From an uncultured Actinomycetes bacterium (GTDB lineage Bacteria > Actinomycetota > Thermoleophilia > RBG-16-64-13), in the NCBI GenBank assembly GCA_963829545.1, contig CAWHIX010000008.1:127324-191323 (forward strand): a stretch of DNA of 64,000 nucleotides, in the 5' to 3' direction. The first letter of the stretch is position 1. The number at the start of each line of letters is the position of its first letter. This document shows, piece after piece, positions 2,989-54,797 of this stretch. Made by a program: the position numbers and the translations under genes. The notes beneath the pieces were generated by a model. The model made no database searches. It had not been told where the DNA came from and saw nothing but the letters and a program-made list of their open reading frames with translations.

Positions 2989-3021
2989 CGTCGGCCGCCG
3001 ACTATCAGAGAGAGGGGACTG

Positions 3022-3456: not shown

Positions 3457-3494
3457 GGTCCGGCGGGCGGATCTTCACGGGTAGGTCGGTCTTC

Positions 3495-5876: not shown

Positions 5877-5886
5877 GGAGAGACTC

Positions 5887-6381: not shown

Positions 6382-6839
6382 AACCGACGCGCGACGACAT
6401 CGTGAAGTGGATGAACGACTATTTCGCCGAGTACAACGCCAGCGCGCAGGACGCTGAGACCGTTCACGCCATGGACACGTACTTCGCCCCCGACCTCACC
6501 TTCATACCTTATATGAGCGCCTTCGGCGGGCCGGGAGCGGCGATCACCGGCAGTGAGAATTTCTACCGTACGCTGACCACTCATCCCGACGACTACGAGA
6601 GGTTCGAAGTACTCGACATCTTCGTCGACGAGGAGCGCCTGGTGTCGGTCGCGTTTCTGATCGCGCGGATCTTCAGTACGAAGACCGACGAACTGCTGGT
6701 GCAGAAGCACTACCTGCCTCTCTATGAACTGGCCATCAACGACGACGGCGAGCTGAAGATCAAGACCATCCGGTTCTTCTGGGAAGCCTCTCCCCCGGAG
6801 GTCGACGCAAACTACTCAGGCGCGGCGAAGGGACGATAG
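6378..6839 (+). CDS. NTF2/SnoaL-like protein, copy 2 (tandem paralogue).
   Basis: 153 aa. IVKWMNDYFAEYNA corresponds to FAAWIDEYFEAFNL in copy 1. The ATGA overlap indicates translational coupling. Confidence 0.55.
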   Translation: MKPTRDDIVKWMNDYFAEYNASAQDAETVHAMDTYFAPDLTFIPYMSAFGGPGAAITGSENFYRTLTTHPDDYERFEVLDIFVDEERLVSVAFLIARIFSTKTDELLVQKHYLPLYELAINDDGELKIKTIRFFWEASPPEVDANYSGAAKGR

Positions 6840-14563: not shown

Positions 14564-17173
14564 ATGTCGCAAGAGGCGAAGGATGGACAAGGGGAAAGGA
14601 CTGTCTACCGCGGGCTGAGTTTCATAGGCATCGCGGCCGATGCGAACAGCGTGCGCGTGGAGTGCAAGGATGGCAGGATCATCCGCATCCGGCCTCTTCA
14701 ATACGACGAGAAGTATCCCGGCCTGGAGCCGTGGAAGCTGGAGGCTCGGGGCAAGAGCTTCTCCCCCAAGATGCTGTCGGCCGTTCCGCCGCTCAGCCTC
14801 GGCTACAAGAACCGGGTCTATTCCCCCAACCGGGTGCTGTATCCGCTGAAGAGGGTGGATTGGGACCCGACGGGCGCCCCCGGGTCCACCGGCCCCGGCG
14901 GGCGCAACCCGCAGAACCGCGGTCTCAGCAAGTACGAGCGCATCTCCTGGGATGAAGCTCTCGACATCGTGGTGGCCGAGATCGAGAGGGTCAAAGAGAA
15001 GTACGGCATGGAGGCCATCCTCTCCCAGTCCGACGGGCACGCCGAGACGAAGACCATCCATTCCGCTCACGGCTGTCACCGCCGTCTCCTCAGGATGCTG
15101 GGCGGCTACACGCTCCAGACCCGCAACACCGACAGTTGGGAGGGCTGGTACTGGGGCGCCAAACACGTGTGGGGTTGCGAGCTCCTGGGACAGATGGTGC
15201 CGGTCGCCAACGTCATGTCGGACGTCTCCAACAACTGCGACGGCATCCTCTTCTGGGGCTGTGACCCTGAGACCACTCCCTGGGGCTTCAACGGGCAAAC
15301 GGCCAGTCGGCTGAGCTACTGGTGGACCGAGTTGGGCATCAAGCAGATCTACATCGCTCCCGACTGCAACTACGGCAACGCCGTCCACGCCGACAAATGG
15401 ATCCCGGTGCTGCCCAACACCGACGCCGCCCTCTACCTTGCCATCGCTCACGTGTGGTTGACTGAGGGCACCTACGATCAGGAGTACGTCGAGACCCATG
15501 CCGTGGGCTTCGAGAAGTTCCGGGCCTACGTCCTGGGCGAAGAGGACGGCGTTCCCAAGAACCCCAAGTGGGCCGCGCCCATCACGGGCGTGCCTTCCTA
15601 CACCATCAGGGCCCTGGCCCGCTACTGGGGCAAGAAGACCGTCTCCATAGCCATCGGCAACGGTGGCCCGGGCATCAGGGGCCCGTACTCCACCGAGCCG
15701 GCCCGCCTGCAGGTATTGCTTCTGGCCATGCAGGGCGTCGGCAAACCCGGGGTGCACCAGTTCAAGATGATGGAGTGGGGGCTCTACAACAAGAAGTCCA
15801 ACAACCCCCTGCCCCCGCCCAAGTACATACCCCTCATGATGGGGGCCAACCGCGGCTGGCTCTACACGGACACACCGCCGCAGTTCATCCCCAAGGACCT
15901 CATCCCCGACGCCATCCTCAAGCCGCCCCTGAGTTGGTACGGCACCACGCTCTCCCGGGACTCGGTCGATCAGCAGTTCATCAAATACACCTATCCGCGT
16001 GAGGGCGGCACCGAGATCCACATGATCTGGACCGACAGCCCCTCCTGGATGACGTGCTGGAACGACACCAATTCGTTCGTCCGGGCTGCGCGCGACCCCA
16101 AGATCGAGTTCGTGCTCGCTCAGCACCCCTGGATGGAGAACGACTGCCAGCTCGCCGACCTGGTGTTGCCCTCGCTCACCATGATGGAGGTCGACGACAT
16201 CGGCTGTGATTCGCTGAGCGCCATCTTCTACGTCGTGTTCCATGAGCCCCGGGCCATCGAACCCAGGGGCGAATCGAAGAGCGACTACGAGATCGTCTGC
16301 GCTATCGCCGAGCGCTTCGGGATATTGGAGGAGTACACAGGCGGCAACAGTGTCGACGACTGGATCAAGGTCGGATACGAGACCTGCGGCGTGGCCGGCG
16401 ACATCAGCTTCGAAGAGCTGAAGGAGAAGGGGTACTTCGTAGTCCCGCACGATACCGAAGTGCCGAACGACGGCAAGGCCGGCCTGCTCGACTTCTACGA
16501 GGACCCGGAGGGCCATCCTCTGACCACGCCCAGCGGCAAGATCGAGTTCTACTCCGAGCGGCTGGCCACGCACTTCCCCGACGATAACGAGCGGCCGCCC
16601 ATGCCGCGTTGGATCCCGGAGGGAGAGTCGCACCAGGAGAGTCGGGACGGGGAGCGGGGCAAGAAGTATCCGCTGCTCGTCATCAGCAACCATCCCAGGT
16701 GGCGCGTGCACTCCCAGCACGACGACATGACCTGGCTGCGCGAGATCCGTACCTGCAAGGTCAAGGGTCCGGACGGATACCAGTACGAGCCGCTCTGGAT
16801 CCACCCCTCCGACGCCGAGGCGCGTGGCATCGCCGACGGCGAGGTGGTCACCATCTACAACGAGAGAGGCGCGGTGCTGGCCGGGGCCTGGGTCACGGAG
16901 AGGATCAGGCCGGGAGCGGTCTACATCGATCACGGGGCCCGCTGGGACCCCATCGTGCCCGGGGAGTTGGACCGTGGCGGTGCCATCAACACCATCACTC
17001 CCCACAACATCACCTCCAAGAACGCCACGGGCATGGTGTGCAGCGGCTTCCTGGTGGAGGTGGAACGGGCCGATCTGGATGCTCTGAGGAGGGCGTATCC
17101 GGAAGCGTTCAAACGGCCGTACCGCGCCGACGCCGGTCTCCGCTTGGAGCGCGTGCTGGAAGGGGGTCGGTGA
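14564..17173 (+). CDS. Pyrogallol-phloroglucinol transhydroxylase-like molybdopterin enzyme, large (alpha) subunit, module 1 (DMSO-reductase superfamily, cytoplasmic).
   Basis: 869 aa with no Tat signal. Blocks WKLEARGKSFSP, YPLKRVDWDP, YERISWDEALDIVVAEIERVKEKYG and DSWEGWYWG match the Pelobacter AthL sequence as I recall it (KIEARGKTFTPP, YERISWDEATDIVVAEINRIKHAYG, DSWEGWHWG). Confidence 0.85.
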   Translation: MSQEAKDGQGERTVYRGLSFIGIAADANSVRVECKDGRIIRIRPLQYDEKYPGLEPWKLEARGKSFSPKMLSAVPPLSLGYKNRVYSPNRVLYPLKRVDWDPTGAPGSTGPGGRNPQNRGLSKYERISWDEALDIVVAEIERVKEKYGMEAILSQSDGHAETKTIHSAHGCHRRLLRMLGGYTLQTRNTDSWEGWYWGAKHVWGCELLGQMVPVANVMSDVSNNCDGILFWGCDPETTPWGFNGQTASRLSYWWTELGIKQIYIAPDCNYGNAVHADKWIPVLPNTDAALYLAIAHVWLTEGTYDQEYVETHAVGFEKFRAYVLGEEDGVPKNPKWAAPITGVPSYTIRALARYWGKKTVSIAIGNGGPGIRGPYSTEPARLQVLLLAMQGVGKPGVHQFKMMEWGLYNKKSNNPLPPPKYIPLMMGANRGWLYTDTPPQFIPKDLIPDAILKPPLSWYGTTLSRDSVDQQFIKYTYPREGGTEIHMIWTDSPSWMTCWNDTNSFVRAARDPKIEFVLAQHPWMENDCQLADLVLPSLTMMEVDDIGCDSLSAIFYVVFHEPRAIEPRGESKSDYEIVCAIAERFGILEEYTGGNSVDDWIKVGYETCGVAGDISFEELKEKGYFVVPHDTEVPNDGKAGLLDFYEDPEGHPLTTPSGKIEFYSERLATHFPDDNERPPMPRWIPEGESHQESRDGERGKKYPLLVISNHPRWRVHSQHDDMTWLREIRTCKVKGPDGYQYEPLWIHPSDAEARGIADGEVVTIYNERGAVLAGAWVTERIRPGAVYIDHGARWDPIVPGELDRGGAINTITPHNITSKNATGMVCSGFLVEVERADLDALRRAYPEAFKRPYRADAGLRLERVLEGGR

Positions 17174-17174
17174 C

Positions 17175-18006
17175 ATGGGCAAGGTGATGGTCATAGACAT
17201 CACGAAGTGCAACGGCTGCTACAACTGCCAGATAGCCTGCAAGGACGAGCACTGCGGCAACGACTGGTCGCCTATCGCCAAACCGCAGCCGCTCAGCGGC
17301 CAGTTCTGGCACAAGGTCACCGACCGGGTGCGCGGCCAGGTACCCAAGGTCAAGGTGGCCTACGAGCACACCATCTGCCAACACTGCGCCGATGCGCCAT
17401 GCATGACGGCCTGTCCCGAGAAGGCCATCTACAGGCGCTCTGACGGAGCCGTGGTCATCGATCCGCAGGTCTGCAAGGGCAACCACAGTTGCGTGGAGAG
17501 CCTGCCCCTACGAGGGCGTGGTGTACTTCAACGAGGACCTCAAGATCGCGCAGAAGTGCACGTTCTGCGCGCATCTCCTCGACAAGGGATGGACCCAGAC
17601 CCGCTGCTCGGAGGCCTGTCCCACCGGGGCCATCTCCTTCGGGGAAGAAGAGGAACTTGCAGAACTGATCGCCGGAGCGGAACTGCTCCGTCCCGATCTG
17701 GATACAGGTCCGCGCGTGTACTACATCGGCTTGCCCAAGACCTTCATCGGGGCGACCGTCTATGACCCCGAAGCAGACGAGGTGGTGGAGCAGGCCCTGG
17801 TGACTCTGGAGCGGCTGGGAGACGAGGCGCCGGTGACGGCGCATACCGACGAGTTCGGCGACTTCTGGGTCGACGGCCTGCAGACCGGCGTCTACAACGT
17901 ATCCGTGGCGAAGGATGGCTACGTCACCATCGACATGGCGGCGGTGACGGTCGACAAGGACCTGAATCTCGGCGACCTTCCCATGCAGCAAGAGCGGAGG
18001 CGGTGA
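17175..18006 (+). CDS. Transhydroxylase-like small (beta, ferredoxin-type) subunit, module 1, with one apparent frameshift near 17505.
   Basis: MVIDITKCNGCYNCQIACKDEH corresponds to BthL MVIDVAKCQDCNNCFMGCMDEH. The C-terminal part is in the second ORF (17518..18006) with KPRVYY...GDFW...DLNLGDL. Restoring ..VESCPYEGVVYF requires a 1-nt indel in a cc run. Confidence 0.8.
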
Positions 18007-18302
18007 ACGTGAGAGCCATAGTGAACATGATGTCCGGCAAGGTGGGCGGCGTTGTGGGCTGGCGTGCCCGTGAGATCCGCGTGGACAAGCCTACCGTGAC
18101 CGTTGAGGACATCTTCCGGTCGGTGACCCTGAAGGATAGCGACACGACCCTGTACGACCTGATCTGCGAGGAGCAGGGGCTCAAGCCGGAGTATGCGGTG
18201 TTCATCGGCGGCGAGTTCATGCGGGGCGCCTACGACTGGCAGCGCCCCATCATCGACTCCGAGCAGATCCACGTGGCCGACTGGCCAATGAGCGACTCCT
18301 AG
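18003..18302 (+). CDS. Small hypothetical protein (99 aa) between transhydroxylase modules. Possible MoaD/ThiS-like beta-grasp fold without the terminal Gly-Gly.
   Basis: GTG start overlapping the stop of the previous gene. The C-terminal segment YAVFIGGEFMRGAYDWQRPIIDSEQIHVADWPMSDS resembles the MoaD pattern VAVNGEFV...L.DGDEV.I.PPVSGG but ends in DS. The fold assignment is inferred. Confidence 0.45.
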   Translation: MNVRAIVNMMSGKVGGVVGWRAREIRVDKPTVTVEDIFRSVTLKDSDTTLYDLICEEQGLKPEYAVFIGGEFMRGAYDWQRPIIDSEQIHVADWPMSDS

Positions 18303-18318
18303 ACAAGGGGCGGACACG

Positions 18319-20907
18319 GTGGAAAAGACGGTATTGAAGGCCCTGGGTCAGTGCTCTTTCACCCGGAACGGAGATCCGGCGTCCATCGACGTGAAGGACG
18401 GCAGGATACTGCGCATCCGGCCCCTCCACTTCGAGGACAAATACACCAAGAAAGAGCTCAAGCCGTGGAGACTCGAGAAGGACGGAAAGGTACTCGATCT
18501 CGCGCTCAAGAGCTACCTGGCCCCCTACATGCTCGGCTACAAGAAGCGCGTCTACTCGCCCAACCGGATCCTCTATCCCCTCATCAGAGAAGACTGGGAT
18601 CCAAACGGGGAGCGCAACGTCGAGAACCGGGGCAAGAGCAAGTACAGGCGCATCTCCTGGGACGAGGCGACCACCCTCATCGCCGGCGAGATCAAGCGGG
18701 TACGCGAGACCTACGGACCCTATGCCGTTCTCTGCCACGGTGACGGCCACGGCGAGACCAAGTGCGTGCACGGTCCCCATTCGTGCCAGATGCTGCTGAT
18801 GGAGAAGGTGGGCGGCTATACGCAGGCCGTGCGCAACGCCGACAGCTGGGAGGGCTGGTACTGGGGCGCCGAGCACGTGTGGGGAGAGGGCATCCAGGGT
18901 CACCCCATGCCGGCCGACAACCTGCTCAACGACATCACCCAGCACACGCAGATGCTGGTCGCCATCGGCTGCGACTTGGAGACCACGCCTTGGGGCTTCG
19001 GCGGCCAGTTCCCCAGCAACGTCTGCTACTTCTGGTCCGATCTGGGGATCAAGCAGATCTCCATCGCCCCCGACCTCAACTACTACGCCGGCGTCCACGC
19101 CGACAAGTGGATCCCCATCCTGCCCAACACCGACGCCGCCCTGCAACTCGCCATCGCCTACACCTGGATCAAGGAGGGCATCTACGACAAGGAGTACGTC
19201 GCCACCCACGTGGTCGGTTTCGAGACCTTCCGCGCGTACGTCATGGGCGAAGAAGACGGCGTGCCGAAGTCGCCGGAATGGGCGGCCGAGAAGACGGGCG
19301 TCTCCGAATGGACCATCAAGGCGCTGGCCCGCCAGTGGGCGGAACAGATCACCTCGACGCTGCACTACTACGGCGGCTCGTACATCCGCGGCCCCTTCGC
19401 GCACGAGCCGGCGCGGCTGGAGTGCGTCCTCATGGGCATGCAGGGACTGGGCAAGCCGGGTCGCCACGTCTACGCCAAGATGGGCGACGGACTGTCCCAG
19501 GGCGACCTACCCAGGCCGACCGTCGCGCTCCAGCTGGGCATCATCCGCAGCCAGGTGTGGAGCGGTCGTGCCCTGCTCGAACTCACGCCCCAGATCATCC
19601 CCAAGACCCAGCTTCACCAGGCCATCCTCGACGGTTCGGTGAGCTCCTGGGGGAGCACGTCGCTCTACGCGCACATCGAAGATCAGTTCAAGAAGTACAC
19701 CTACCCCATCCCCGAGGAAGAGGGCGGGAGCGAGGTGCACATGATGTGGATGGACAACCCCTGCCGGACCACCTGCTGGAACAACAGCATGGAGTCCATC
19801 CAGGCCTACCGCAGCCCCAAGCTGGAGTGCATCGTCGTGCAGCACCCCTGGCTGGAGAACGACACCGTCTTCGCCGACATCATCCTGCCCATCAACACCA
19901 AGTTCGAAGAGGAAGACTTCGCCCAGATCTCGAGCGCGTCCCCGCTCAAGGGCATTGCCTACGAGAAGAAGGCCATCGAGCCTCTCGGCGAATCGCTGAG
20001 CGACTACGAGGCCGTCGGTGAGGTGGCCAAGAAGATGGGTCTCTACGAGGAGTACACCTCCGGCATGACCGTGCCTGAGAAGATCAAGTGGGCCTACGAG
20101 GTGTGCGGACTCAAGGACAACCTCACCTGGGAGGAGTTCCAGGACAAGGAGTACTACTACATACCCACCGAGGACGACTGGGAGAAGTACCCGGCCGGCA
20201 TGCGGCTCTTCTACGAGGATCCCGAGGCCAATCCGCTGATCACTCCCAGCGGCAAGCTCGAGTTCTACTCGCAGCGTCTGGCCGACCACTTCCCCGACGA
20301 CGAGGAACGTCCTCCCTATCCCAAGTGGATCGAGAAGGGGCCCAGCCACGACGAGCGCCTGTCCAGCGAGAGGGCTGAGAAGTACCCCTTCCTCTTGGTC
20401 AGCAACCACGCCCGCTGGAGGACCCACGCCGAGAACGACGACATCACCTGGCAGAGGGAGATCCGCACCTGCAAGATCAGGGGTTACGACGGCTACCAGT
20501 ACGAACCGGTCTGGATCCATCCGGAAGACGCGGCCTCCAGAGGTATCAAGGACGGGGATCTCGTCAAGCTCTTGAACGAGCGGGGCACGGTGTTGGGTGC
20601 CGCTCTGGTGTGGGAACGCATCATGCCCGGCGTGGTCTACCAGGACCACGGGGCTCGGGCGGATCTCATCAGCACCGAGGCCGGCAAGTCCATCGATCGG
20701 GGTGGGGCCAACAACCTCATCTCCCCGGCCAACGGCACCTCCCAGAACTGCTGGGGCATGGCCACGAGCGGCTTCCTGGTAGACGTGCAGAAGGTCAGCA
20801 TGGCCGAGATGGAGGAGTGGCGTCAGAAGTATCCCGATGCCTTCACGCGGGAGTACTCGCCGGCCGCGGGTCTGCGCTTCACGAGCTGGATCAAGGGAGA
20901 GGAGTAG
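18319..20907 (+). CDS. Pyrogallol-phloroglucinol transhydroxylase-like molybdoenzyme large subunit, module 2 (intact).
   Basis: 862 aa, paralogous to 14564..17173 (ELKPWRLEKDGK, YRRISWDEATTLIAGEIKRVRETYG, DSWEGWYWG). Confidence 0.85.
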   Translation: MEKTVLKALGQCSFTRNGDPASIDVKDGRILRIRPLHFEDKYTKKELKPWRLEKDGKVLDLALKSYLAPYMLGYKKRVYSPNRILYPLIREDWDPNGERNVENRGKSKYRRISWDEATTLIAGEIKRVRETYGPYAVLCHGDGHGETKCVHGPHSCQMLLMEKVGGYTQAVRNADSWEGWYWGAEHVWGEGIQGHPMPADNLLNDITQHTQMLVAIGCDLETTPWGFGGQFPSNVCYFWSDLGIKQISIAPDLNYYAGVHADKWIPILPNTDAALQLAIAYTWIKEGIYDKEYVATHVVGFETFRAYVMGEEDGVPKSPEWAAEKTGVSEWTIKALARQWAEQITSTLHYYGGSYIRGPFAHEPARLECVLMGMQGLGKPGRHVYAKMGDGLSQGDLPRPTVALQLGIIRSQVWSGRALLELTPQIIPKTQLHQAILDGSVSSWGSTSLYAHIEDQFKKYTYPIPEEEGGSEVHMMWMDNPCRTTCWNNSMESIQAYRSPKLECIVVQHPWLENDTVFADIILPINTKFEEEDFAQISSASPLKGIAYEKKAIEPLGESLSDYEAVGEVAKKMGLYEEYTSGMTVPEKIKWAYEVCGLKDNLTWEEFQDKEYYYIPTEDDWEKYPAGMRLFYEDPEANPLITPSGKLEFYSQRLADHFPDDEERPPYPKWIEKGPSHDERLSSERAEKYPFLLVSNHARWRTHAENDDITWQREIRTCKIRGYDGYQYEPVWIHPEDAASRGIKDGDLVKLLNERGTVLGAALVWERIMPGVVYQDHGARADLISTEAGKSIDRGGANNLISPANGTSQNCWGMATSGFLVDVQKVSMAEMEEWRQKYPDAFTREYSPAAGLRFTSWIKGEE

Positions 20908-20909
20908 CC

Positions 20910-21737
20910 GTGGCCGGGAAGGTGTTTGTCATCGATATAGCCCGCTGCAACGGTTGCTACTGCTGCCAGCTTTCCTGCAAAGACGAGCACGTGGGCAACG
21001 ACTGGACGCCCTATGCCAAGCCGCAGCCCGACACCGGGCAGTTTTGGCTCAAGCTGAACGAGTTCGTGCGGGGCACGGTACCCAAGGTGAAGCTCCACTA
21101 TATGGGCGTGCCCTGCCAGCACTGCGACCAGGCTCCCTGCCTGGAGTCCTGCCCTGTCGAGGGCGCCATCTACAAGCGCGACGACGGCCTGGTCATCATC
21201 GACCCGCAGAAATGTACCGGCTGCAGAGAGTGCCTGCTCTCCTGCCCGTACGACGCCCTGTTCTTCAACGACGACCTGAACATCGCCCAGAAGTGCACCG
21301 GTTGCGCCCATCTGCTCGACAAGGACTGGAAGGTCCCCCGCTGCGTGGATTCCTGCCCGACAGGGGCGATGAAGTTCGGGGACGAAGCGGAGTTCGCCGA
21401 AGAGATCGCCAGAGCCACTCTGCTCGGGCCCGCCGGCGAGACCAAGCCTCGCGTCTACTACCTCAACGTCCCCAAGCGCTTCGTCGGAGGGCTCGTGTAC
21501 GACCCGGTGGAGAAGGAGATCGTGCGGGGGGCCCGCTGCACTCTGGTGGACGCGGAGACCGGCGAGCAGCGGATCGTGGAGACCGATGGCTTCGGCGACT
21601 TCTGGTTCAAGGATCTGGAGGAGAGGACGTACTCGCTCACTATCGAAGCGGAGGGCTTCGCTCCCGTGCAGTACCCGTCGCTGGACACCAGCGACGACAT
21701 CAACCTGGGTGAGATCGCCCTCAGCCGCCCGACATGA
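20910..21737 (+). CDS. Transhydroxylase-like small ferredoxin-type subunit, module 2 (intact).
   Basis: GTG start 3 nt after the stop of the large subunit. VFVIDIARCNGCYCCQLSCKDEH and further CxxCxxC(x)3CP motifs. C-terminal beta-sandwich region (GDFWFKDL...DINLGEIAL). Confidence 0.85.
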   Translation: MAGKVFVIDIARCNGCYCCQLSCKDEHVGNDWTPYAKPQPDTGQFWLKLNEFVRGTVPKVKLHYMGVPCQHCDQAPCLESCPVEGAIYKRDDGLVIIDPQKCTGCRECLLSCPYDALFFNDDLNIAQKCTGCAHLLDKDWKVPRCVDSCPTGAMKFGDEAEFAEEIARATLLGPAGETKPRVYYLNVPKRFVGGLVYDPVEKEIVRGARCTLVDAETGEQRIVETDGFGDFWFKDLEERTYSLTIEAEGFAPVQYPSLDTSDDINLGEIALSRPT

Positions 21738-21954
21738 ACGGGATGACCATCACGTGGTCGCCGTCCTGCAGACGATGGTGAAGCCGGACGTAGACCCCGT
21801 TGACGAGGATCGCTTCGGTGTCGCCGGGAACGTGGAGGATCTCGAGCAGATCGTCCAGGGTCATGCCGTCTACGAGCGGCACGCAAACAGTCGGACGACC
21901 CTCCCTGGCCGGGAAGGTCTCCACGGTGACCGTGCTCTGTCTTTCGGCGTTCAT
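21721..21954 (-). CDS. MoaD/ThiS-family beta-grasp sulfur-carrier-like protein (about 77 aa) on the opposite strand.
   Basis: Ends ...LQDGDHVMVIPFMSGG (canonical C-terminal Gly-Gly). It overlaps the 3' end of the preceding small-subunit gene by 17 nt. The longer ORF (93 aa, start 22002) is the alternative. Confidence 0.6.
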   Translation of the reverse strand: MNAERQSTVTVETFPAREGRPTVCVPLVDGMTLDDLLEILHVPGDTEAILVNGVYVRLHHRLQDGDHVMVIPFMSGG

Positions 21955-22025
21955 GCCTGCCAGTTTACTCGCTGTGGGCCGTGCATGTGGCAAAGAGTCC
22001 ACGTCTAGTGGAGGGTTAGACTAAC

Positions 22026-24311
22026 ATGGGCGTCGAAGAGAAGAAGATCGTCTGCTGGGCGTCGCCGGGCTGCATCCATCAGTGCGGACTCATCGCCACC
22101 GTGAAGGACGGCGAACTGGTCGGCCTACGGGGCAACCCGGACTATCCCACCCCCAATCACGGCTGCGGCGACCGCATGCCTCACCACGCCAAGTGGCTGT
22201 ATAGCTCGGAGCAGCTTCTCTATCCGCTGAAGAGAAAGGGCGAGAGGGGCGAGAACCAATGGGAACGCGTCTCCTGGGATCAGGCCCTGGATGAGATAGC
22301 GACTAAGCTCGTCGACCTCAAGCAGGAGTACGGCGCCGAGACCCTCGCCGTCCAGGAGGGGACCTATCGCAACGATCACTACGGCCTGCGCGCCCGCTTC
22401 CTGCATCTCTTCGAAAACCCCATGAACATCGGCTGCGCCGGCACCATCTGCCGCTGCAACACTATCGCCCTCAACTACGCGCTCCTGGGCATGACCAACT
22501 CCAGACCGAAGCTGCCCAACCTCAAGTGTCTGGTCATCGAGGGCTGCAACCTCAGCGACACGGCCCCGCTCGATTTCCAGCGGCTCAAGAAACGCATGGC
22601 GGAAGGCGACCTCAAGCTCATCGTCATCGATCCCCGGCGCACCGAGGCGGGCAGGCTCGCCGACATCTGGGTGCAGTTGCGTCCGGGCACCGACACGGCT
22701 CTCTTCATGGCCTGGATCAATGTGATCATCGAGGAGGGTCTGTACGACAGGTCTTTCGTCGAGCAGTGGACCTTCGGCTTCGACGAGTTGCGCGCCCGGG
22801 CCGCCGAGTACACCCCCGAGAGGGTCGCGGAGATCACCTGGGTCTCCGCGGATGTCATCCGGGAATCGGCGCGCATGTACGCTACCAATTGGCCGGCGGG
22901 CTTCCACTGGGGAAGCGCCACCGACATGCTGGGGCGCAACTCCATCAGGGTCGAGCAGGCAAGGATCTGCCTGCGGGCCATCACGGGCAACCTGGCCATC
23001 GGCGGCGGGGAGGTGATCGTCGGGCCCGGGCCCATCATCGGCGGCACCATCGGCGTGCGCGATTCCATGCTCGCCCTGCCCGAGAAGGTCAGCCCCGAGC
23101 AGCGGAAGAAACAGCTCGGCGCCGATAGGTTCAAGCTTCTCGGGTGGCCGGGCTACGAGGCCATGGGCAAGTATCACGAGGAGACCTACGGCGTGCCCTT
23201 CCCCACGGCGGCCCACAACTTCGTGGCGGTGCAGCCTCTCATCTGGAAGGCGGTCCTCGAGGAAGACCCCTATCCGGTGAAGGCCATGATCACCTGGGGC
23301 AGCAACGTGCTCCTCAACGGGGGAGACGTCAAGACCATCTACAAGGCGCTCAAGAGTCCCAACCTGGAGTTGCACGTGGTGCTGGAGCACTTCATGACGC
23401 CCACGGCACTCCTGGCCGATTACGTGCTTCCCATAGCGAGCAAGCTCGAAAAGCCCATGTGCGCCACCCACGAGGACTTCGCACCCAACATCGCCTGCGG
23501 CGAGGCGGCGGTGGAGCCGCGGGGCGAGCGCCGCGGCGACTTCTTCGTGTGGAAGGGGCTTGCCGACCGCCTGGGCTTCGGCGAGTACTTTCCCTGGGCG
23601 ACGGAGGAGGAGTTGGCCGACTATCGCCTGGCTCCTCTGGGCCGGACTTTCAAGGAAGTCGCCACCCAGGAGTACTTCGTGCGTAGCGACGAGCCCTGGA
23701 CCTACGACACCATCAACCCCAGGACGGGCAAGCGGACCGGGTTCGCCACTCCGTCGGGCAAGGTGGAACTCTACTCCAACGTGCTGGAGCAGCTGGGCTA
23801 CGACCCCCTGCCCTTCTACGAGGAACCCCCGGAGAGCCCCATCAGCACCCCGGAGGTGGCCGTGGAGTACCCGTACATACTCATCACGGGCGGCAACTTC
23901 CGGCCCATGTTCCACTCCGAGAACCGGCAACTGGGTGTCGGCACCCGCGAGCAGTACCCCGACCCCATCATGGACATCCACCCGGACACCGCCCGAGAGC
24001 ACGGCATCGAGGAGGGCGACTGGGTGTTCGTCGAGACCCGCAAAGGCGTGATCCGGCAGCGGGCCAAGCTCACGGACGAGATCGACCCACGGGTGGTCAA
24101 CGTGCAGAGCCACTGGTGGTTCCCGGAGCAGCCGGCTCGAGAGCCGTGGCTGCATGGTCTTTGGGAGTCGAACTGCAACGTGCTCACTGCCGCGGACGAC
24201 CCGGATACCTTCGACCCGGTGACCGGCGGTTGGCCGCTGCGTGCGCTCCTGTGCAAGGTCTACAAGGCGGAGACCGTCGGTGGGCGGACTCCATCGCCCC
24301 GAAGTACGTGA
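22026..24311 (+). CDS. Cytoplasmic molybdo/tungstopterin oxidoreductase of the DMSO-reductase superfamily, acetylene-hydratase-like clade (tentative).
   Basis: 761 aa. N-terminal Cys motif VCWASPGCIHQCG...HGCGD ([4Fe-4S]) and no Tat signal. Blocks YPLKRKGERGENQWERVSWDQALDEIA, LKSPNLELHVVLEHFMTPTALLADYVLP and the C-terminus PLRALLCKVYKAE resemble what I remember of acetylene hydratase. Confidence 0.8.
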   Translation: MGVEEKKIVCWASPGCIHQCGLIATVKDGELVGLRGNPDYPTPNHGCGDRMPHHAKWLYSSEQLLYPLKRKGERGENQWERVSWDQALDEIATKLVDLKQEYGAETLAVQEGTYRNDHYGLRARFLHLFENPMNIGCAGTICRCNTIALNYALLGMTNSRPKLPNLKCLVIEGCNLSDTAPLDFQRLKKRMAEGDLKLIVIDPRRTEAGRLADIWVQLRPGTDTALFMAWINVIIEEGLYDRSFVEQWTFGFDELRARAAEYTPERVAEITWVSADVIRESARMYATNWPAGFHWGSATDMLGRNSIRVEQARICLRAITGNLAIGGGEVIVGPGPIIGGTIGVRDSMLALPEKVSPEQRKKQLGADRFKLLGWPGYEAMGKYHEETYGVPFPTAAHNFVAVQPLIWKAVLEEDPYPVKAMITWGSNVLLNGGDVKTIYKALKSPNLELHVVLEHFMTPTALLADYVLPIASKLEKPMCATHEDFAPNIACGEAAVEPRGERRGDFFVWKGLADRLGFGEYFPWATEEELADYRLAPLGRTFKEVATQEYFVRSDEPWTYDTINPRTGKRTGFATPSGKVELYSNVLEQLGYDPLPFYEEPPESPISTPEVAVEYPYILITGGNFRPMFHSENRQLGVGTREQYPDPIMDIHPDTAREHGIEEGDWVFVETRKGVIRQRAKLTDEIDPRVVNVQSHWWFPEQPAREPWLHGLWESNCNVLTAADDPDTFDPVTGGWPLRALLCKVYKAETVGGRTPSPRST

Positions 24312-24352
24312 AGCGTTCTGGGGGCGAGAGCGCCGCAGAGAAGGAGAGGCTC

Positions 24353-27257
24353 ATGTCGAGTGACGGACTTCGTGGCATCGAGCCGGCGGGTGGTCGGGGA
24401 GAGCAGTCGTTCGTTCACCACCCGCTTATCCCGTACGACCCGAATGTCGCCCTGTATTTCGCCGCCGGCCCCGTGCTGCTCCCCTTCGAGTACACCGGGT
24501 GGCAGGACGAAGTGATGTCGTACAAGCAGTCCTGTTACATCAGAGGTTCTGGCCATGAGCGTGAAGGACCGAGGCTCGACATCGGGGCCGAGCGGCAGGT
24601 CATCCGCGGAACCGGTCTACTCGGGCCCGGAGACTCGGGACCGCCGGCCCTCGTGCACGTCAAGGAAGACAGGATCACGAGGATCAGGCCCCTGAACTAC
24701 GAGCTCGAGTACGACAAGAAGGACTTCAATCTCTGGAAGATGGAGGCGAGGGGAAAGACCTTCGCACCTCCCCTGCGTGCAGTCCTAGGTCCCATCGGTC
24801 AGGCCTACAAGAAGCGCGTGTACTCCAAGAACCGAGTGCGTTATCCGCTCAAGCGGGTGGACTGGGACCCCGAGGGCGCTTCGGGGTCCGACGGTCCCGG
24901 CGGGCGCAACACCCAGAACCGGGGGCGGAGCAAGTACGTGCGCATCGGCTGGGACGAGGCCGCCGAGTTGGTGGCGGCGGAACTGAAGAGGATGAAGGAG
25001 ACCTACGGTCCCGAGGCCGTGCTCTCCCAGTCCGACATGCATGGCGAGACGAAGCACCTCAGTCCCAGCCATGGCTGTGCCAACCGCCTCCTCTCCCTGT
25101 TGGGTGGCTACACCGTCCAGATGCGCAACCTGGACAGCTGGGAAGGGCAGAACTGGGGCGCCAAGCACGTGTGGGGTTGCGAGCCGGTAGGGGAGATGGG
25201 GCCGACGGCCAACCTCTACCCCGACATCGCCGAGCACGGGGAACTGCTCCTCTTCTGGGGTTGCGACCCGGAGACCACCGCCCATCCCATCCAGGGCATG
25301 CTGGCCAGCCGGCTCTGCTACTGGCTCTCGGACGTCGGTCTGAAGTCCGTCTACGTCTGTCCCGACCTCAACTACGGCGCCGCCGTGCATGCGGATAAGT
25401 GGATCCCCGTCCTGCCCAACACCGATGCCGCGCTGCAGCTGGCCATCGCTTACGTGTGGATCACCGAAGGCACCTACGACAAGGACGTACATCGCCACCC
25501 ATTCCTACGGCTTCGACAAGTTCGAGGACTACGTCCTGGGCAAAGAGGACGGCGTGCCCAAGACGCCGGCGTGGGCGTCTGAGAAATGCGGCGTACCGGA
25601 CTTCACCATCAAGGCGCTCGCTCGCGACTGGGCCGATAAGATCACCAGCCTCATCCACGGCAATGCCGGCCCGGGCATAAGAGGCCCTTACTCCACTGAG
25701 CCGGCCCGCCTGGAGGCCATGCTCCTGGGCATGAGCGGACTGGGCAAGCCCGGCGTCCACCAGGCCAAGATGATCGAGTGGTTCCTGTGGCACAAGTGGC
25801 TGCCCTTGCCGTATCAGGGCAAAGTCACGCCCGCCCTGCCCCTGTTCGCCGAGCAGGTGCGCCCGGCAGGAGCAATGACCTTCAAGGACGGCATGATGGG
25901 CACCTACGCGGGTACTCACCCCGAAATGCGGGCCCTGACCGCACCCGCGGCCAATCCGCCTCTCCAAGTCATCCCCAAGTGCCTCATCCACGACGCCATC
26001 CTCGACCCGCCCATCAGCTGGTGGGGCCTGCACGGTTTTCTCGAACCGGTCGCGGAGCAGTTCAAGGAGCACACCTATCCGGCTCCGGGATGCTCGGAGG
26101 TGCACATGATCTGGACCGACTCCCCCTGCTGGATCACCTGCTGGAACGACTCCAACAGCTACATCAAGGCTCTCCAGTCGCCCTCCGTCGAGTGCATCGT
26201 GGCCCAGCATCCCTGGCTGGAGAACGACTGCCTCATGGCGGACATCATCCTGCCGGTAGGGACCCGCTACGAGATGCTCGACATCGGTGAGGACGTGGGT
26301 AGCGGTGTCGTCATGTCCATCTATCTGCAGGATCACTGCGTGAACCCAGTGGGGGAATCGCTGTCCGACTTCGACGTGGTGGCGAAGATCGCCGAGAAGC
26401 TGGGTCTGCTGGAGGATTACACACAGGGCAAGACCATGGAGGAGAAGCAGAGACTGGCCTTCGACGGCTCCGGCGTGGAAGACCTCATCTCCTGGGAGGA
26501 TCTAAGGAGAAGCAATACTTCGTCATCCCCTGCAGCGACGACGTGAAGGACCAGCCGCCCGGCCTGCGCGATTTCGCCGACGACCCGGCAAGGCCAGCCC
26601 TCTGAGCACCCCCACCGGTCTGCTGGAGTACTCGTCGAGCGCTCTGGAGGAGCACTTCCCCGACGACCCGGAGCGGCCGCCGGTGGCGCACTGGATCGAG
26701 AAGGGCGAGAGTCACGACGAGCGGCGCAGCAGCGAGCGGGCTGCGGAGTATCCGCTGCTCTGCATGTCGAACCACCCTCGCTGGCGCATGCACGCCCAGG
26801 GCGACGACATCACCTGGACCCGCGAAATACCGACGATGAAGATCACGGGAGCGGACGGTTATCAGTACGAGCCGGTGTGGCTCAACACCGCCGAGGCGGA
26901 GCTGCGGGGCATCGCTCAGGGCGATATCGTCAAGATCTACAACGAACGGGGCATCGTCCTGGGCGGCGCCTTCGTCACCGAACGGCTCATGCCCGGCGTG
27001 GCCTACATGGACCACGGAGCCAGGTGGGACCCCATCATCCCCGGCAAGCTGGACCGGGGGGAGCCATCAACACCATCACGCCGCACAAGGTCACCTCCAA
27101 GAGGGCGACCGGCATGGTGGTGAGCGGGTTCCTGGTCGAGGTGGCCAAGGTGAGCGACGAGGAGATGGCCGGCTGGCGCCGGGACTACCCGGAGGCCTTC
27201 GACAGAGACTACGACGCTCGTGACGGGCGTGTCCCTGTCCGGCTGGCTTCAGGAATA
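24353..27257 (+). pseudogene. Transhydroxylase-like large subunit, module 3. It has an unusual N-terminal extension of about 75 aa and at least 4 apparent frameshifts.
   Basis: Ribosome-binding site AAGGAGAGG before the ATG. After the extension the protein aligns with modules 1 and 2 (LDIGAERQVIRGTG.., WKMEARGKTF, VRIGWDEAAELVAAELKRMKETYG). The frame breaks at about 25490, about 26510, about 27060 and about 27200. The true end is probably ..SGWLQE* at 27257. Confidence 0.7.
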
Positions 27258-27267
27258 AGGAGGAGAG

Positions 27268-28084
27268 ATGGCCAAGAGCATTCGTCATAGACGTGGGACG
27301 CTGCTGCGGCTGCTACAACTGCCAGCTCGCCTGCAAGGACGAGCACGTCGACAACGACTGGACTCCCTACGCCAAGCCGCAGCCGGACACGGGGCAGTTC
27401 TGGCTGAAGATAGAAGAGAACGTGTGCGGCACCGTCCCCAAGGTGCGGATGCATTACATCCCCCGGCTCTGCAACCACTGCGCGAACGCACCCTGCATCG
27501 ACTCGTGCCGGGATGCTGCTATCACGCGGCGCGATGACGGGCTGGTGATCATCGAACCGGAGAAGTGCACGGGGTGTGAGGCCTGCGTGACGGCTTGCCC
27601 GTACGAAGCCATCTATTTCAACGACGAACTCGCCCTCGCGCAGAAGTGCACAGGCTGCGCGCATTTGCTGGACAACGGCTTCAAACTGCCCCGTTGTGTC
27701 GAATCCTGCCCCACGGATGCTATACGCTTTGGCGAGGAAGAAGACCTGCAGGAGCTCATCGCCGGTGCCGTCGTCCTCAAGCCGGAGACGGGCAGCCGGC
27801 CGCGCGTCTACTACCGGAACATACCCGGCAAGTTCATCAGCGGCACGGTGTTCGACCCGGTCGAGCGGGAGGTCGTCATCGGAGGGCGCTGCCTGCTGAC
27901 CTCGGGTGGCAAGGTGGTCGAGACCTTCACCGATGCCTACGGCGACTTCTGGTTCAACGACCTGGCGGTGGGCAGGTACGACGTGAGTATCGAGGCCGAC
28001 GGGTTCACGCCCAGGTACTTCTCCGCTCTCGATACCGCCAAGGACGTCAACCTGGGCGAGATACCGCTCACTCGGAAATCCTGA
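27268..28084 (+). CDS. Transhydroxylase-like small ferredoxin-type subunit, module 3 (frameshift right after the start codon, or GTG start at 27293).
   Basis: Ribosome-binding site AAGGAGGAGAG then ATG. MAKS.. is followed in the +1 frame by AFVIDVGRCCGCYNCQLACKDEH... The rest of the gene is intact (263 aa ORF from 27293) with four Cys clusters and C-terminal GDFWFNDL..DVNLGEIPL. Confidence 0.75.
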
Positions 28085-28104
28085 GGGGCTGGGGAGCAGC
28101 TCAC

Positions 28105-30862
28105 ATGGACATCGGCGCGGACAAGCAGGTCATCCGGGGCTCGGGCCTCATCGGATCGGGAGATTCCGGTCCCCCCACCCTCGTGGACGTCAAGGACGGC
28201 AGGATCACGAGGATCAGGCCCCTCGACTACGAGTCGAAGTACGACAAGAAGGACTTCAACGCCTGGAAGATGGAGGCGAAGGGAAAGACGCTCGATCCTC
28301 CCCTGCGCGCCTCGCTGGGTCCCATCGGCCAGGCCTACAAGAAGCGGGTCTACTCCAAGAACCGGGTGCGCTATCCGCTCAAGCGCGTGGACTGGGACCC
28401 GGGAGGGGCGCCGGGGTCCGTCGGCCCCGGCGGGCGAAACACCCAGAACCGGGGCACGAGCAAGTACGTGCGCATCTCCTGGGACGAGGCCGCCGAGTTG
28501 GTGGCGGCCGAGTTGCGGCGCATGAAGCAAGACCTACGGTCCCGAGGCCGTGCTCTCCCAGGCCGACATGCACGGAGAGACGCAAGCACCTCAGCCCCAG
28601 CCACGGCTGCGCCAACCGGCTGCTCTCGCTGCTGGGCGGCTACACCATCCAGATGCGCAACCTGGACAGCTGGGAAGGCCAGAACTGGGGCGCCAAGCAC
28701 GTGTGGGGCTGCGAGCCGGTGGGGGAGATGATGCCGGCCGCCAACCTCTACCCCGACATCGCCGAGAACGGGGAGCTGTTGCTGTTCTGGGGCTGCGACC
28801 CAGAGACCACGTCCGCACGCCATCCAGGGCCAGTTCGCGAGCAACCTGTGCTACTGGCTCTCCGAGGTCGGCCTCAAGTCCGTCTACGTCTGCCCCGACC
28901 TCAACTACGGCGCCGCGGTTCATGCCGACAAGTGGATCCCCATCCTTCCCAACACCGACGCCGCGCTGCAGCTCGCCATCGCTTACGTGTGGATCACCGA
29001 AGGCACCTACGACAAGGAGTACATCGCCACCCACTCCTACGGCTTCGACAAGTTCGAGGACTACGTCCTCGGCAAAGAGGACGGCGTGCCCAAGACGCCC
29101 GCGTGGGCCTCGGAGAAGTGCGGCGTCCCCGACTTCACCATCAAGGCGCTGGCCCGCGACTGGGCGAAGAAGACCACCAGCCTCATCCACGGCAACGGCG
29201 GGCCCGGCATCAGAGGGCCGTTCTCCTCCGAGCCGGCCCGGCTCGAAGCCATGCTCCTGGGCATGCAGCGGCCTGGGCAAACCCGGCGTCCACCAGGCCA
29301 AGATGCTCGAATGGTGGATCTGGGGCGAGTGGTTTCCCATCCCCTATCAGGGCAAGATCAGGCCCAACCTGGCCGGCTTCTCCGAGCAGTGCCGCCCGGT
29401 CGACTGCATGGACCCGACGCGGATGATCCCGCCCCTCTACTTGGGCGCCCATCCGGAGATGCTGGAACTGACCAAGCTCACCGACCAGCCTCCACTCGCA
29501 GGCCATCCCCAAGTGCCTGATCCACGACGCCATCCTCAACCCGCCCATCAGCTGGTGGGGCCTGCACGGCTTCCATGGAGCCGGCAGAGGAGCAGTTCAC
29601 GCAGCACACCTATCCGGCCCCGGGGCTGCTCGGAGATCCACATGATCTGGACCGACTCGCCCTGCTGGATCACCTGCTGGAACGACTCCAACACCTACAT
29701 CCAGGCCCTGCAAAGTCCCTCGATCGAGTGCATCGTGGCCCAGCATCCCTGGCTGGAGAACGACTGCCTCATGGCCGACATCATCCTTCCGGTCAGCACG
29801 AGGTTCGAGATGCTGGACATCGGCAACGACCTGGGCAGCGGCGTGCTTCACCTCCGTCTTCCTGGAGGAGCCACTGCATCGACCCCGTGGGCGAGTCGCT
29901 CTGCGACTTCGACGTCGTGGCCAAGATCGCCGAGAAGCTGGGGCTGTGGGAGGAGTATACTCAGCGGCAAGACCATGGAGGAGAAGCAGAAGCTCGCCTT
30001 CGATGCCTCGGGCATGGACGAGCTGGTCATCCTGGGAGGAGCTGCAAGAAGAAGCAGTACTTCGTCATGCCCTGCAGCGACGAGGTCAAGGACCAGCCGC
30101 CCGGCCTCAGCCCGTTCGCGCAACGACCCGAAGAACAATCCGCTGACCACGCCCACCGGCCTCCTCGAGTATTCCTCGAGCGCCCTGGAGAAGCACTTCC
30201 CCGACGATCCCGAGCGACCGCCTGTGGCTCACTGGATCGAGAAGAGCGAGAGCCACGACGAGCGCCTGAGCAGCGAGCGGACCGAGCAGTATCCGCTCCT
30301 CTGCATGTCGAACCATCCGCGGTGGCGCATGCACGCCCAGGGCGACGACATCACCTGGACGCAGAGAGGTTCCCGACCATGAAGGTCAAGGGTCCCGACG
30401 GCTATCTCTACGAACCGGTGTGGCTCAACCCCGCGGAGGCGGACTCCCGGGGCATCGCGCACGGCGACATCGTGAAGATCTTCAACGAGCGGGGCATCGT
30501 GCTGGGCGGCGCCTACGTCACGGAGCGGCTCATGCCCGGGTGGCCTACATGGATCACGGGGCCAGGTGGGACCCGATCATCCCCGGCAAGCTGGACCGCG
30601 GGGGGGCGATCAACACCATCACACCGCACAAGGTCACGTCCAAGAACGCCACGGGCATGGTCGTGAGCGGGTTCCTGGTCGAGGTGGCAGAAGGTCGACC
30701 GACGAGGAGATGGCCGGCTGGCGCCGGGACTACCCGGAGGCGTTCAGCCGGGACTACGACCTGGCGACGGGCGTGTCGCTGTCGGGCTGGCTGGAGCAAT
30801 CAGGCGCGGCGCTGCCCAGGCGGACCCGCAGAAGGAGTGAGACACCACATGTACACGTGTAA
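28105..30862 (+). pseudogene. Transhydroxylase-like large subunit, module 4. It is a recent duplicate of module 3, heavily disrupted with at least 7 apparent frameshifts.
   Basis: MDIGADKQVIRGSGLIGSGDSGPPTLVDVKDGRITRIRPL... is about 90% identical at the nucleotide level to module 3. An example stretch is gtcctgcccaacaccgatgccgcgctgcagctggccatcgcttacgtgtggatcaccgaaggcacctacgacaag, which occurs in both copies. The reading frame jumps between at least six partial ORFs (27595.., 28550.., 28653.., 28987.., 29575.., 30420..). Confidence 0.7.
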
Positions 30863-32897
30863 ATACCCGCATCTCTTCGCGCCCATCCGCCTGGGCGGAG
30901 CCGTCTTCGCCAACCGTCTCTTCTCCGCTCCCATGGGCTACGAGTACCTGTCGTCCAGGAACTACCCCCTGGACGAGACCATCGCCTTCTACGAGCGCCG
31001 CGCGGTGGGGGGCGCGGGCGCAGTGAGTGTGGGCTCTGCAGTGGCGGACAGCAGACGGGGTTGCATCGGGCTCAGCAACACCTATCTCGACGACCCGACC
31101 GCGCTGCCCCCTATCTACCGTCTGGCGTCGGCCATCAACCGGCACGGAGCCGTGGCCGCGATCGAGCTGCAGCACTCCGGGGCCAACTCCTATCATTCGG
31201 CGGCGCAGGGCAACCAGATCTACGGGGCCGTCGACGGGGAGAACGCTCTGGGCCAGTTCGTCCCGGCCATGCCGGCCGAGATCATCGAAGAGACCATCGA
31301 GGCCTACGGCGACGCGGCGGCCTTCGCCAAGTTCTGCGGCTTCGGCCTGGTGACCGTTCACGCCGGTCACGGCTGGTTGCTCAACCAGTTCCTCGACCCC
31401 AACGTGAACGATCGCAAGGACGAGTGGGGTGGCGGCCGAGAGAACCGCTGCCGCTTCCTGCTCCGTATCGTGGAGCGCATCAAGCAGAAATGTGGTTGCG
31501 GATTCCCCGTCGACGTCCGCATGAGTGGGTCGATGTGCCACGAAAGCGGATACGGCATCGACGAGGGCATCGCTATCGCCAAGCAACTCGACGGTAAGGT
31601 GGACCTCATCCACGTGTCGGCGGGCAGCCACGAGATCCCCGAGGTCTTCACGGTCACGCATCCCAGCATGTTCATGCCGGATGGGCCCAATGTGGTGTTC
31701 GCGGCTGAGATCAAGAAGCACGTCCAGACTCCGGTGGCGGCCGTGGGTGCCCTTGGCGACCCCGAACTCATGGAGGAGATCATCGCCTCCGGCCAGGCGG
31801 ACGTGGTGTACGCCGCCCGAGCCCTCATGGCCGACCCCGACCTGCCCCGGAAGGCCCGCGCCGGGCAGGATGAAGAGATCAGGCCCTGCATCCGTTGCTT
31901 CGAGTGCTTCGCCGGCATCACGACCAAGCGCCAGTACCGGTGCGCTGTGAACCCGGAAATAGGTTTCGAAGAGGAAAGCCGGCACGCTCTGCCGACGGCG
32001 AAGCCGAAGCGGGTCCTGGTCGTGGGTGGGGGAGTGGCCGGGCATGCAGGCCGCCCTCACCGCTGCCGAGCGGGGGCATGAGGTGATCCTGTGCGAGAAG
32101 TCCGACCGCCTGGGCGGTGTGCTCCGGTGCGAGGAGAAGGTGCCGTTCAAGAGGCTTCTGTCCCAGTATCTGGACCAGCAGGCGGGGATGATCAGGCGGG
32201 CGCCCATCGACGTCCGGCTCGGCACCTCAGTCACGCCCGAACTGGCGGAAGCCGTCGAGGCCGACGTCGTCCTGGCAGCCCTGGGCGCCCGTCCCTGCGT
32301 TCCCGGAATCCCGGGGATCCACGGCCCCAACGTCCTCGGGGCTGAAGAGGCCTACCTGTCGCCGGAGCGGACCGGCGATGGGGGCGACAGCGTCGTCGTC
32401 CTGGGCGGAGGACTGGTGGGCATCGAGTTGGCCGTCTTCCTCGCCGGTCTGGGGCGCGACGTGACCATCATGGAGATGATGGAGACTCTCAGCGACGGAG
32501 GCAACCCCGTTCAAGGCCTCGCCCTGATGAAGGAGATCAAGCGCTTGGGAATCAAGGTCTCCACCTCTACCAGAGCTTCAGAAGTCGACGAAGAAGGGTG
32601 TCATAGGGGAGTACGTGGGGAGCGCCTATACGCTGCCGCCATGCCGCACGGTGCAACAGGCGGTGCTGCAGTCGAACAGCTTCGGCAGGGCCGTGCGCGC
32701 CGACATCGAGGTGGGGAGCAAGACGCTGTTCGCCGCCGATACCGTCGTCTACGCGACGGGGCAACAGCCGCTCCAGGACGAAGCGGACGCGTCTGCGCTT
32801 CTGCGCACCCGAGTTCTATCAGATCGGGGACTGCTGGAGACCGAGGAACATGGTGGAGGCCACGCGCATGGCCTTTGCCGTCGCGCGCGACCTGTGA
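30849..32897 (+). pseudogene. Second OYE-family enoate reductase with FAD/NAD(P) domain, with at least 3 apparent frameshifts.
   Basis: MYTCKYPHLFAPIRLGGAVFANRLFSAPMGYE... is the OYE N-terminus. HAGHGWLLNQFLDP is the active-site region. CIRCFECFAG is a Cys cluster. The dinucleotide fold VLVVGGG[P]AGMQAALTAAERGHEVILCEK is broken by a 1-nt indel near 32040. Further breaks lie at about 32600 and 32820. It ends ..MAFAVARDL* at about 32897. Confidence 0.7.
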
Positions 32898-54760: not shown

Positions 54761-54797
54761 CACTAGAGAGTCCTTCTCGGGAGAGTTCCTCTAGGCG

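Follow-up and report, generated by a model that had tools for sequence, protein, structure and literature searches.

Layout of the array

We analysed a window of 64,000 nucleotides from an uncultured Actinomycetes bacterium (contig CAWHIX010000008.1; GC content 64%), the nearest relatives of which are metagenome-assembled genomes (MAGs) of Actinomycetota/Thermoleophilia. Between 14.5 and 30.9 kb, with every gene on the + strand, the window carries an array of four large (alpha) and three small (beta) subunit genes of molybdenum enzymes with a bis-molybdopterin guanine dinucleotide cofactor (Mo-bisMGD), distantly related to the pyrogallol-phloroglucinol transhydroxylase AthL/BthL of Pelobacter acidigallici. 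We number the modules 1 to 4, and refer to their large and small subunits as M1L to M4L and M1S to M3S (Table 1). An earlier, first-pass annotation had described positions 14564 to 30862 as a run of such modules, an inventory which stands for the modules themselves, and which left out both a further Mo/W enzyme gene (22026-24311) and a 99-residue open reading frame (ORF) at 18003-18302. The small-subunit starts that it gave (17175, 20910 and 27268) are upheld, as are the large-subunit starts at 14564, 18319 and 28105. Its remaining start, 24353, belongs to the ATG of an unrelated 67-residue ORF; homology to M3L begins near 24555, where an ATG preceded by AGAGG, in another frame than this ORF, is the likely true start, and codon views point to one further, probable frameshift just after it, near 24575. 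M4L opens with an ATG (MDIGADKQ...), and the N-terminus of M1S reads MGKVMVIDITKCNGC.

The four large subunits are 52-57% identical to one another (52% for M2L and M1L), save for the pair M3L and M4L, which share 82% of their residues and 84% of their nucleotides. M1L is 81% identical to an intact protein from a Thermoleophilia MAG (P0006).

Table 1. Genes and reading frames of the molybdoenzyme array and its immediate surroundings (positions in the window)
Feature	Position	Strand	Length and state
M1L, AthL-family (clade B) Mo-bisMGD large subunit	14564-17173	+	869 aa, intact
M1S, BthL-like iron-sulfur small subunit	17175-18006	+	1 frameshift near 17496; 15 Cys
Small ORF between M1S and M2L	18003-18302	+	99 aa; coding-like frame by GC content at third codon positions (GC3)
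M2L, AthL-family (clade B) large subunit	18319-20907	+	862 aa, intact, GTG start
M2S, small subunit	20910-21737	+	275 aa, intact; 16 Cys in four full groups; C-terminal beta-sandwich domain
Acetylene-hydratase-like Mo/W-bisMGD enzyme	22026-24311	+	761 aa, intact; N-terminal Cys cluster; without partner subunit
Small ORF opening upstream of M3L	24353-24553	+	67 aa; in frame into M3L
M3L, clade B large subunit, QNWG subtype	~24555-27258	+	~900 aa; 5 frameshifts and 1 inferred
M3S, small subunit	27268-28084	+	271 aa, 16 Cys; one +1 frameshift at 27277
M4L, clade B large subunit, M3L paralogue	28105-30862	+	16 frameshifts; without small subunit of its own
OYE-type FMN/FAD enoate reductase	30849-32897	+	~681 aa; 3 frameshifts; Pfam Oxidored_FMN

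Family assignment of the large and small subunits

At the level of the family, the match to AthL/BthL proposed in the first-pass annotation is borne out. By far the closest solved structure to M1L is the large subunit of pyrogallol hydroxytransferase (4v4c_A; E = 2e-137, and 1.3e-189 for a profile of 14 family sequences), the next-best PDB matches being DorA/TorA at about 1e-76 to 1e-99. M1L and M2L contain the AthL domains AhtL-like_1st (PF21423), Molybdopterin (PF00384) and Molydop_binding (PF01568), the first of which scores 44.8 bits in M1L (cutoff 27) and 26.7 bits, slightly below the cutoff, in M2L. The likeness extends to the small subunits: M2S matches 4v4c_B (E = 1.2e-50) and aligns to BthL over residues 6-263, and, as in BthL, a ferredoxin-type domain is followed by a C-terminal beta-sandwich domain. 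In M1S and M2S, Pfam recognises these as Fer4_11 and a CarboxypepD_reg-like domain, which in M1S are spread across two ORFs, with a change of frame in the tblastn alignment.

The sequence motifs quoted by the first-pass annotation were found as well: YERISWDEA in M1L, and DSWEGWYWG in M1L and M2L, the corresponding block of M3L and M4L being DSWEGQNWG. All four alphas thus carry the D-S-W-E-G motif that holds the Ser ligand of Mo in AthL, and all keep the equivalent of AthL His144. Direct reading of the four alpha N-termini revealed neither a twin-arginine motif (RRxF) nor an N-terminal Cys cluster, in keeping with the cytoplasmic alpha-beta enzyme AthL/BthL, which has no twin-arginine translocation (Tat) signal. 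At their curated cutoffs, NCBIfam models such as those for TorA, DmsA, BisC, Fdh and Nar all fail to recognise the large subunits, and by a wide margin (bisC_fam, 373 against 1018; TorA, 308 against 909; dmsA_ynfE, 346 against 778). Because they are placed in no other clade of DMSO reductases, and because the Mo ligand and its Asp, Trp and His companions are kept, the large subunits are assigned by these comparisons to the RhL/PgtL (AthL) family in its broad sense, a family of Ser-ligated enzymes in the MopB (DMSO reductase) superfamily (PMC10100899).

The large subunits form a sister clade to AthL

Kinship with AthL does not amount to orthology. To place the window alphas we drew on 80 related loci, taken from the genomes that represent species in GTDB and containing 110 alpha-type ORFs, and rebuilt AthL residues 9-870 from the profile-search alignment before aligning them with M1L-M4L and homologues. 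M1L-M4L are 36-37% identical to AthL (M2L, 36%), and identities among the 110 ORFs are bimodal: 15 are 46-52% identical to AthL and 31-42% to M1-M4, while the remainder are 31-39% identical to AthL, and those listed are about 50-61% identical to M1-M4. A neighbour-joining (NJ) tree of AthL, M1-M4 and the alpha ORFs of the related loci (100 bootstrap replicates; RhL and DbhL left out) separates AthL and the 15 ORFs from M1-M4 and the rest in 100 of 100 replicates, with a distance of 1.21 between the two clades and ~0.6 inside each. We conclude that M1L-M4L are members of a large sister clade of AthL (clade B in Table 1), and not AthL orthologues.

The two clades differ around the active site. 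H144, D174, S175 and W176 (AthL numbering) are invariant in both, that is, in M1L-M4L and all 57 aligned members. Four aromatic residues that are conserved in the AthL clade (Y152 and Y404 in 16 of 16 sequences, F468 and Y560 in 14 of 16) are replaced or deleted in M1L-M4L and their clade; the same holds for AthL Arg153 and Trp354 in the window alphas, from which the loop bearing Tyr560 is absent altogether. The substrate pocket predicted for the window alphas is thus different from that of AthL. Messerschmidt et al. reportedly established in 2004 that Ser175 is the Mo ligand of AthL, and that His144, Asp174 and Tyr404 are catalytic; the difference between the clades stands whatever the roles of these residues.

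Cysteine groups of the small subunits

The beta subunits set the window apart from AthL/BthL in the same way. M2S and M3S contain four complete groups of the C-x2-C-x2-C-x3-C type (16 Cys), and M1S has 15 Cys, with an Asn instead of the second Cys of group III. BthL, unlike these, has 12 Cys (pattern 1001), lacking the last Cys of group II and all but the last of group III, which is consistent with its three [4Fe-4S] clusters. Among the beta genes of the related loci, 53 of 80 encode four complete groups and 15 of 80 the BthL pattern, the latter mostly beside alphas of the AthL clade (median identity to AthL of 47.7% for the 12 neighbouring alpha ORFs). The window betas resemble complete electron-transfer subunits of the DmsB/PsrB kind, with four clusters. 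Taken together, the clade and cysteine data therefore describe the window as four sister-clade alphas with betas of a four-cluster type.

Frameshifts: assembly error or gene decay

Two modules had been read as intact and two as decayed, a division which does not survive closer alignment, as module 2 alone is free of frameshifts. Compared with an intact homologue (P0153) by frameshift-aware alignment, M3L is identical at 763 of 901 positions (85%) with five events (25487, 26502, 26591, 27055 and 27219, besides the sixth inferred near 24575), and M4L at 775 of 901 (86%) with 16 events, 13 of which are +1 insertions. The locus that holds P0153 (L081) supplied the references for two more genes, namely M3S (222 of 271 residues identical, one event, four codons past the ATG) and the enoate reductase that follows M4L (555 of 681 identical, three events); M1S carries a single event. 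In none of these five genes was a stop codon found.

Several features of these genes and their frameshifts speak against decay. The ratio of non-synonymous to synonymous divergence (dN/dS) between M3L and M4L is 0.21 (dS 0.52), and M4L, despite its many events, lies no further than M3L from intact homologues, with 49 lineage-unique amino acid changes to the 60 of M3L. Counts of non-synonymous over synonymous changes along each lineage (N/S) are 1.06 for M4L and 0.83 for M3L (Fisher p = 0.25), where neutrality would give ~3.4. The located frameshifts, which do not lie mainly in homopolymers, are predominantly +1 insertions (20 of 27, ~74%). Real bacterial pseudogenes show a deletional bias, as reported by Mira, Ochman and Moran in 2001, and the excess of insertions runs in the opposite direction. 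As the alignment sets each frameshift between codons by construction, the inserted base is ambiguous, and hence we make no inference of sequence motifs at these sites.

Nor are the frameshifts confined to the array. At least ten unrelated genes of the window are also split, according to a frame-tracking hidden Markov model and Pfam, in three zones. The first, at 11.7-13 kb, includes SDR and AOR genes; the second extends over 24-37 kb; and the third, at 45.5-50.2 kb, holds a permease gene, a saccharopine-dehydrogenase-like gene and class-III aminotransferase genes. In all, two SDRs and one AOR are affected. The aminotransferase sequence appears in four pieces, three on the + strand (48651-49121, 49212-49892 and 50217-51218) and one on the - strand (51256-52566). 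They represent at least two genes, with frameshifts breaking up the + strand ones. Density is uneven, from none in 1-11.7 kb to as many as ~6 per kb in M4L. Among the alpha genes of related loci, 3 of the 20 that come from long-read MAGs of the MFD series are split, as against 0 of the 96 that come from elsewhere; the window itself is drawn from a 517-kb contig, and its protein clusters include truncated members on other very long contigs. We consider it probable, with a good measure of confidence, that the frameshifts are indel errors of long-read metagenome assembly, and if they are, all four modules would be functional in the organism.

The competing explanation is one of real pseudogenes: modules 3 and 4 (and M1S) would be a duplicated part of the array that is decaying as the genome loses these functions. 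It draws on the concentration of events in M4L (16) and M3L (five or six) when M1L, M2L, M2S and the acetylene-hydratase-like gene have none, on the lack of a small subunit of M4L's own, and on lineage N/S values of M3L and M4L that exceed the 0.40 of P0153, which is intact (M4L compared with P0153, Fisher p = 9e-6). Set against the absence of nonsense codons, the constraint on M3L and M4L, the prevalence of insertions, the frameshifts in unrelated genes of the window, and the restriction of split alphas in related loci to one long-read MAG series, we regard genuine decay as unlikely.

Acetylene-hydratase-like gene and genomic context

The Mo/W enzyme encoded between modules 2 and 3 matches acetylene hydratase (2e7z_A) over its full length (E = 5.1e-133, residues 8-747), and keeps the Cys aligned with the metal-ligand Cys141 (chain residue 138). 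In place of Asp13 it has an Ile, in the motif G-C-I-H-Q-C beside the second cluster Cys, and Asp13 is said to be essential for acetylene hydration according to work by tenBrink et al. from 2011. The first Cys motif also departs from that of acetylene hydratase, being C-x5-C-x3-C instead of C-x2-C-x3-C. The gut catechol dehydroxylases of Eggerthella and Gordonibacter, which act on aromatic hydroxyls and are the closest relatives of this type of enzyme, belong by their description to the same clade as this gene (PMC7028382). Its relatives (31-41% identity) occur near AthL-family genes in ~5 of the 80 related loci.

The 99-residue ORF between M1S and M2L found no match in a Pfam search. In L051, from a Desulfospira MAG, an ORF at 19438-19719, directly after the beta gene, is 33% identical to it (E = 4e-14). 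Its product may assist these Mo enzymes as a small accessory protein. The 67-residue ORF upstream of M3L (MSSDGLRG...SCYIRGSG) has no Pfam domain and no significant match in PDB or among the related loci; a likeness to the N-terminus of a GcvT/LigM-type aminomethyltransferase was considered and dropped, as Pfam gave no match, the best PDB match was to an unrelated protein (E = 1.6), and the loci had no counterpart.

Beyond the array, Pfam confirms the surroundings that had been described earlier (enoate reductases, AORs, SDRs, an aldolase and a glycyl-radical enzyme): the enoate reductases are of the OYE type, the AORs number three, the aldolase is an HpcH aldolase, and the glycyl-radical enzyme is accompanied by its activase. 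A URO-D-like protein and a B12-binding protein are encoded as well. This neighbourhood fits anaerobic catabolism, although it is not conserved among the related loci, of which three have an AOR, four an OYE, eight an SDR and ~5 an acetylene-hydratase-like gene. Enzymes of the phloroglucinol pathway (PMC10470551) were not recognised among the Pfam-scanned ORFs of the window, a scan which left out 56-64 kb. One arrangement recurs: in L081 a large subunit, a small subunit and an enoate reductase follow one another, and in the window the order is M3L, M3S, M4L, enoate reductase.

At the left end of the window (54-6839, + strand) lie a glycyl-radical enzyme cut by the window edge, its activase, B12-binding and MutL-type (PF13941) genes, and four ORFs without Pfam domains; the best NCBIfam matches of the glycyl-radical enzyme, below cutoff, are hydroxyproline and sulfopropanediol dehydratases. 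The B12-binding and MutL-like pair is also found in L004, the locus with the closest match to M2L (82%), which we considered as a guide to intact neighbours and set aside, as it has just M2L, B12-binding and MutL-like genes in common with the window. Scans with Rfam and for tRNAs detected no RNA genes in the whole window, including a stretch of ~1.3 kb (54643-55955) that the frame-tracking model reads as non-coding.

Proposed function

On balance we favour the view that this is an RhL/PgtL-family Mo-bisMGD cluster, likely redox-active on phenolics, with frameshifts that are assembly errors. It comprises four alphas, three ferredoxin-type betas and one acetylene-hydratase-like enzyme, predicted to work in the cytoplasm of an uncultured anaerobe. 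A complete iron-sulfur wire from Mo to the protein surface would most likely serve a net two-electron reaction on phenolic or other aromatic substrates, in which a soluble partner exchanges electrons with the enzyme. The reaction could be either the water-dependent hydroxylation of an aromatic position, as in resorcinol hydroxylase, or its reductive dehydroxylation, and would be unlike the redox-neutral, cosubstrate-dependent transfer of OH by pyrogallol transhydroxylase, for which 1,2,3,5-tetrahydroxybenzene is the cosubstrate. RhLS of Aromatoleum/Azoarcus anaerobius and DbhLS of Thauera aromatica AR-1 belong to the same RhL/PgtL family (PMC10100899). Both carry out water-dependent oxidative hydroxylation of phenols in which electrons leave the enzyme, a role that the four-cluster betas of the window would suit. 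RhLS is membrane-associated and operates in a nitrate reducer. The window differs in having no obvious membrane anchor or respiratory partner.

For the subtype represented by modules 3 and 4, the linkage to an enoate reductase suggests that (de)hydroxylation is coupled to an FMN/FAD/FeS reductase, such that the (de)hydroxylation step would be followed by ring or enone reduction by the OYE-type enzyme. That the paralogues serve a range of phenolic substrates, as envisaged by the first-pass annotation, would be a reasonable reading of the array.

We consider a redox (de)hydroxylase of phenolic compounds to be more likely than a strict transhydroxylase. Were the modules redox-neutral pyrogallol-phloroglucinol transhydroxylases, each paralogue would handle its own polyphenol or a sequential step, and sequential transhydroxylations that need several enzymes are indeed known physiologically in Pelobacter massiliensis, from work cited in PMC3971608. 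AthL and BthL are the nearest solved relatives, with identical domain architecture; the Mo-ligand Ser and the adjoining Asp, Trp and His are kept; and alphas of the two clades adjoin in several related loci. A strict transhydroxylase role is nonetheless not supported, because the alphas belong to a separate clade (100/100), have lost Tyr152, Tyr404, Phe468 and Tyr560, and are accompanied by betas with 15-16 Cys which keep the site of a fourth cluster that BthL lost. The failure to recognise phloroglucinol-pathway genes among the Pfam-scanned ORFs (56-64 kb lying outside the scan) points the same way. We therefore no longer describe these as transhydroxylase modules, and hold that role to be improbable.

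Least probable is that the large subunits are DorA/TorA/BisC-like enzymes, soluble reductases of S- or N-oxides, as implied by automatic JGI names ('S/N-oxide reductase-like' or 'trimethylamine-N-oxide reductase') and by DMSO/TMAO reductases and bisC_fam as the second-best PDB and NCBIfam matches, for although these share a Ser-ligated type III bis-MGD architecture and a catalytic subunit devoid of FeS clusters, the large subunits score far under the bisC_fam and TorA cutoffs and much higher against AthL than against DorA, lack the Tat signals of the periplasmic DorA and TorA, and possess an AhtL-like N-terminal domain and a dedicated BthL-like beta, neither of which has a counterpart in DorA/TorA/BisC.

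A number of points weigh against our preferred interpretation of a redox-active cluster with spurious frameshifts. We know of no characterised member of the sister clade, and both the class of substrate and the direction of the reaction are predicted from homology and the FeS argument. Variable neighbourhoods make genomic context a weak support for function. Finally, assembly error must accommodate 16 frameshifts in M4L against none in M1L, M2L and the acetylene-hydratase-like gene, and lineage N/S values of M3L (0.83) and M4L (1.06) above that of P0153; the raised values, with the density of events in M4L, leave a residual case for some relaxation of selection, or for a recent, real inactivation of M4L.

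Prevalence and significance

The array is a typical example of a widespread gene arrangement that has already been noted, and is not unusual for this family. Between two and five alpha genes occur within ~22 kb in 25 of the 80 related loci, alphas often outnumbering betas and the clades often being mixed. The family is large: 6,272 of 8,000 scored candidates matched, the top 120 all with an AthL-type domain, and more than 595 matching stretches lie in genomes that represent species of Dehalococcoidia, Desulfobacterota, Thermoleophilia and further groups. A 2013 study of sediment Chloroflexi described multiple AthLS operons together with acetylene-hydratase-like genes (PMC3971608), and a single-cell genome of Dehalococcoidia was reported in 2016 to have three copies (PMC4959651). 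Alphas of the AthL clade and of the sister clade stand side by side in ten loci (L062, L070, L064, L060, L003, L017, L036, L044, L045 and L057), directly adjacent in L062 and L070, with one beta gene detected, and this proximity suggests that both clades serve the same pathways.

AthL-like genes have been used as metagenomic markers of anaerobic degradation of pyrogallol and polyphenols in sediments and peat (PMC3971608, PMC4959651). Most such genes in the loci sampled here, including all four of the window, fall in the sister clade, and as the signature residues are absent and the beta is of the four-cluster type, transfer of the annotation 'transhydroxylase' is probably unsafe. For long-read MAGs more broadly, frameshifted genes call for a check of selection signatures and of neighbouring genes before gene decay is invoked. 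The point worth keeping is the assignment to a clade with a different pocket and a four-cluster beta. We tentatively suggest, as a possibility that goes beyond what we would yet expect to hold, that this widespread sister clade may consist of four-cluster cytoplasmic Mo enzymes for the redox (de)hydroxylation of lignin- and tannin-derived phenols, which would feed linked enoate reductases, and to which metagenomic studies of carbon cycling would routinely give the wrong name, 'pyrogallol hydroxytransferase' or 'TMAO reductase'.

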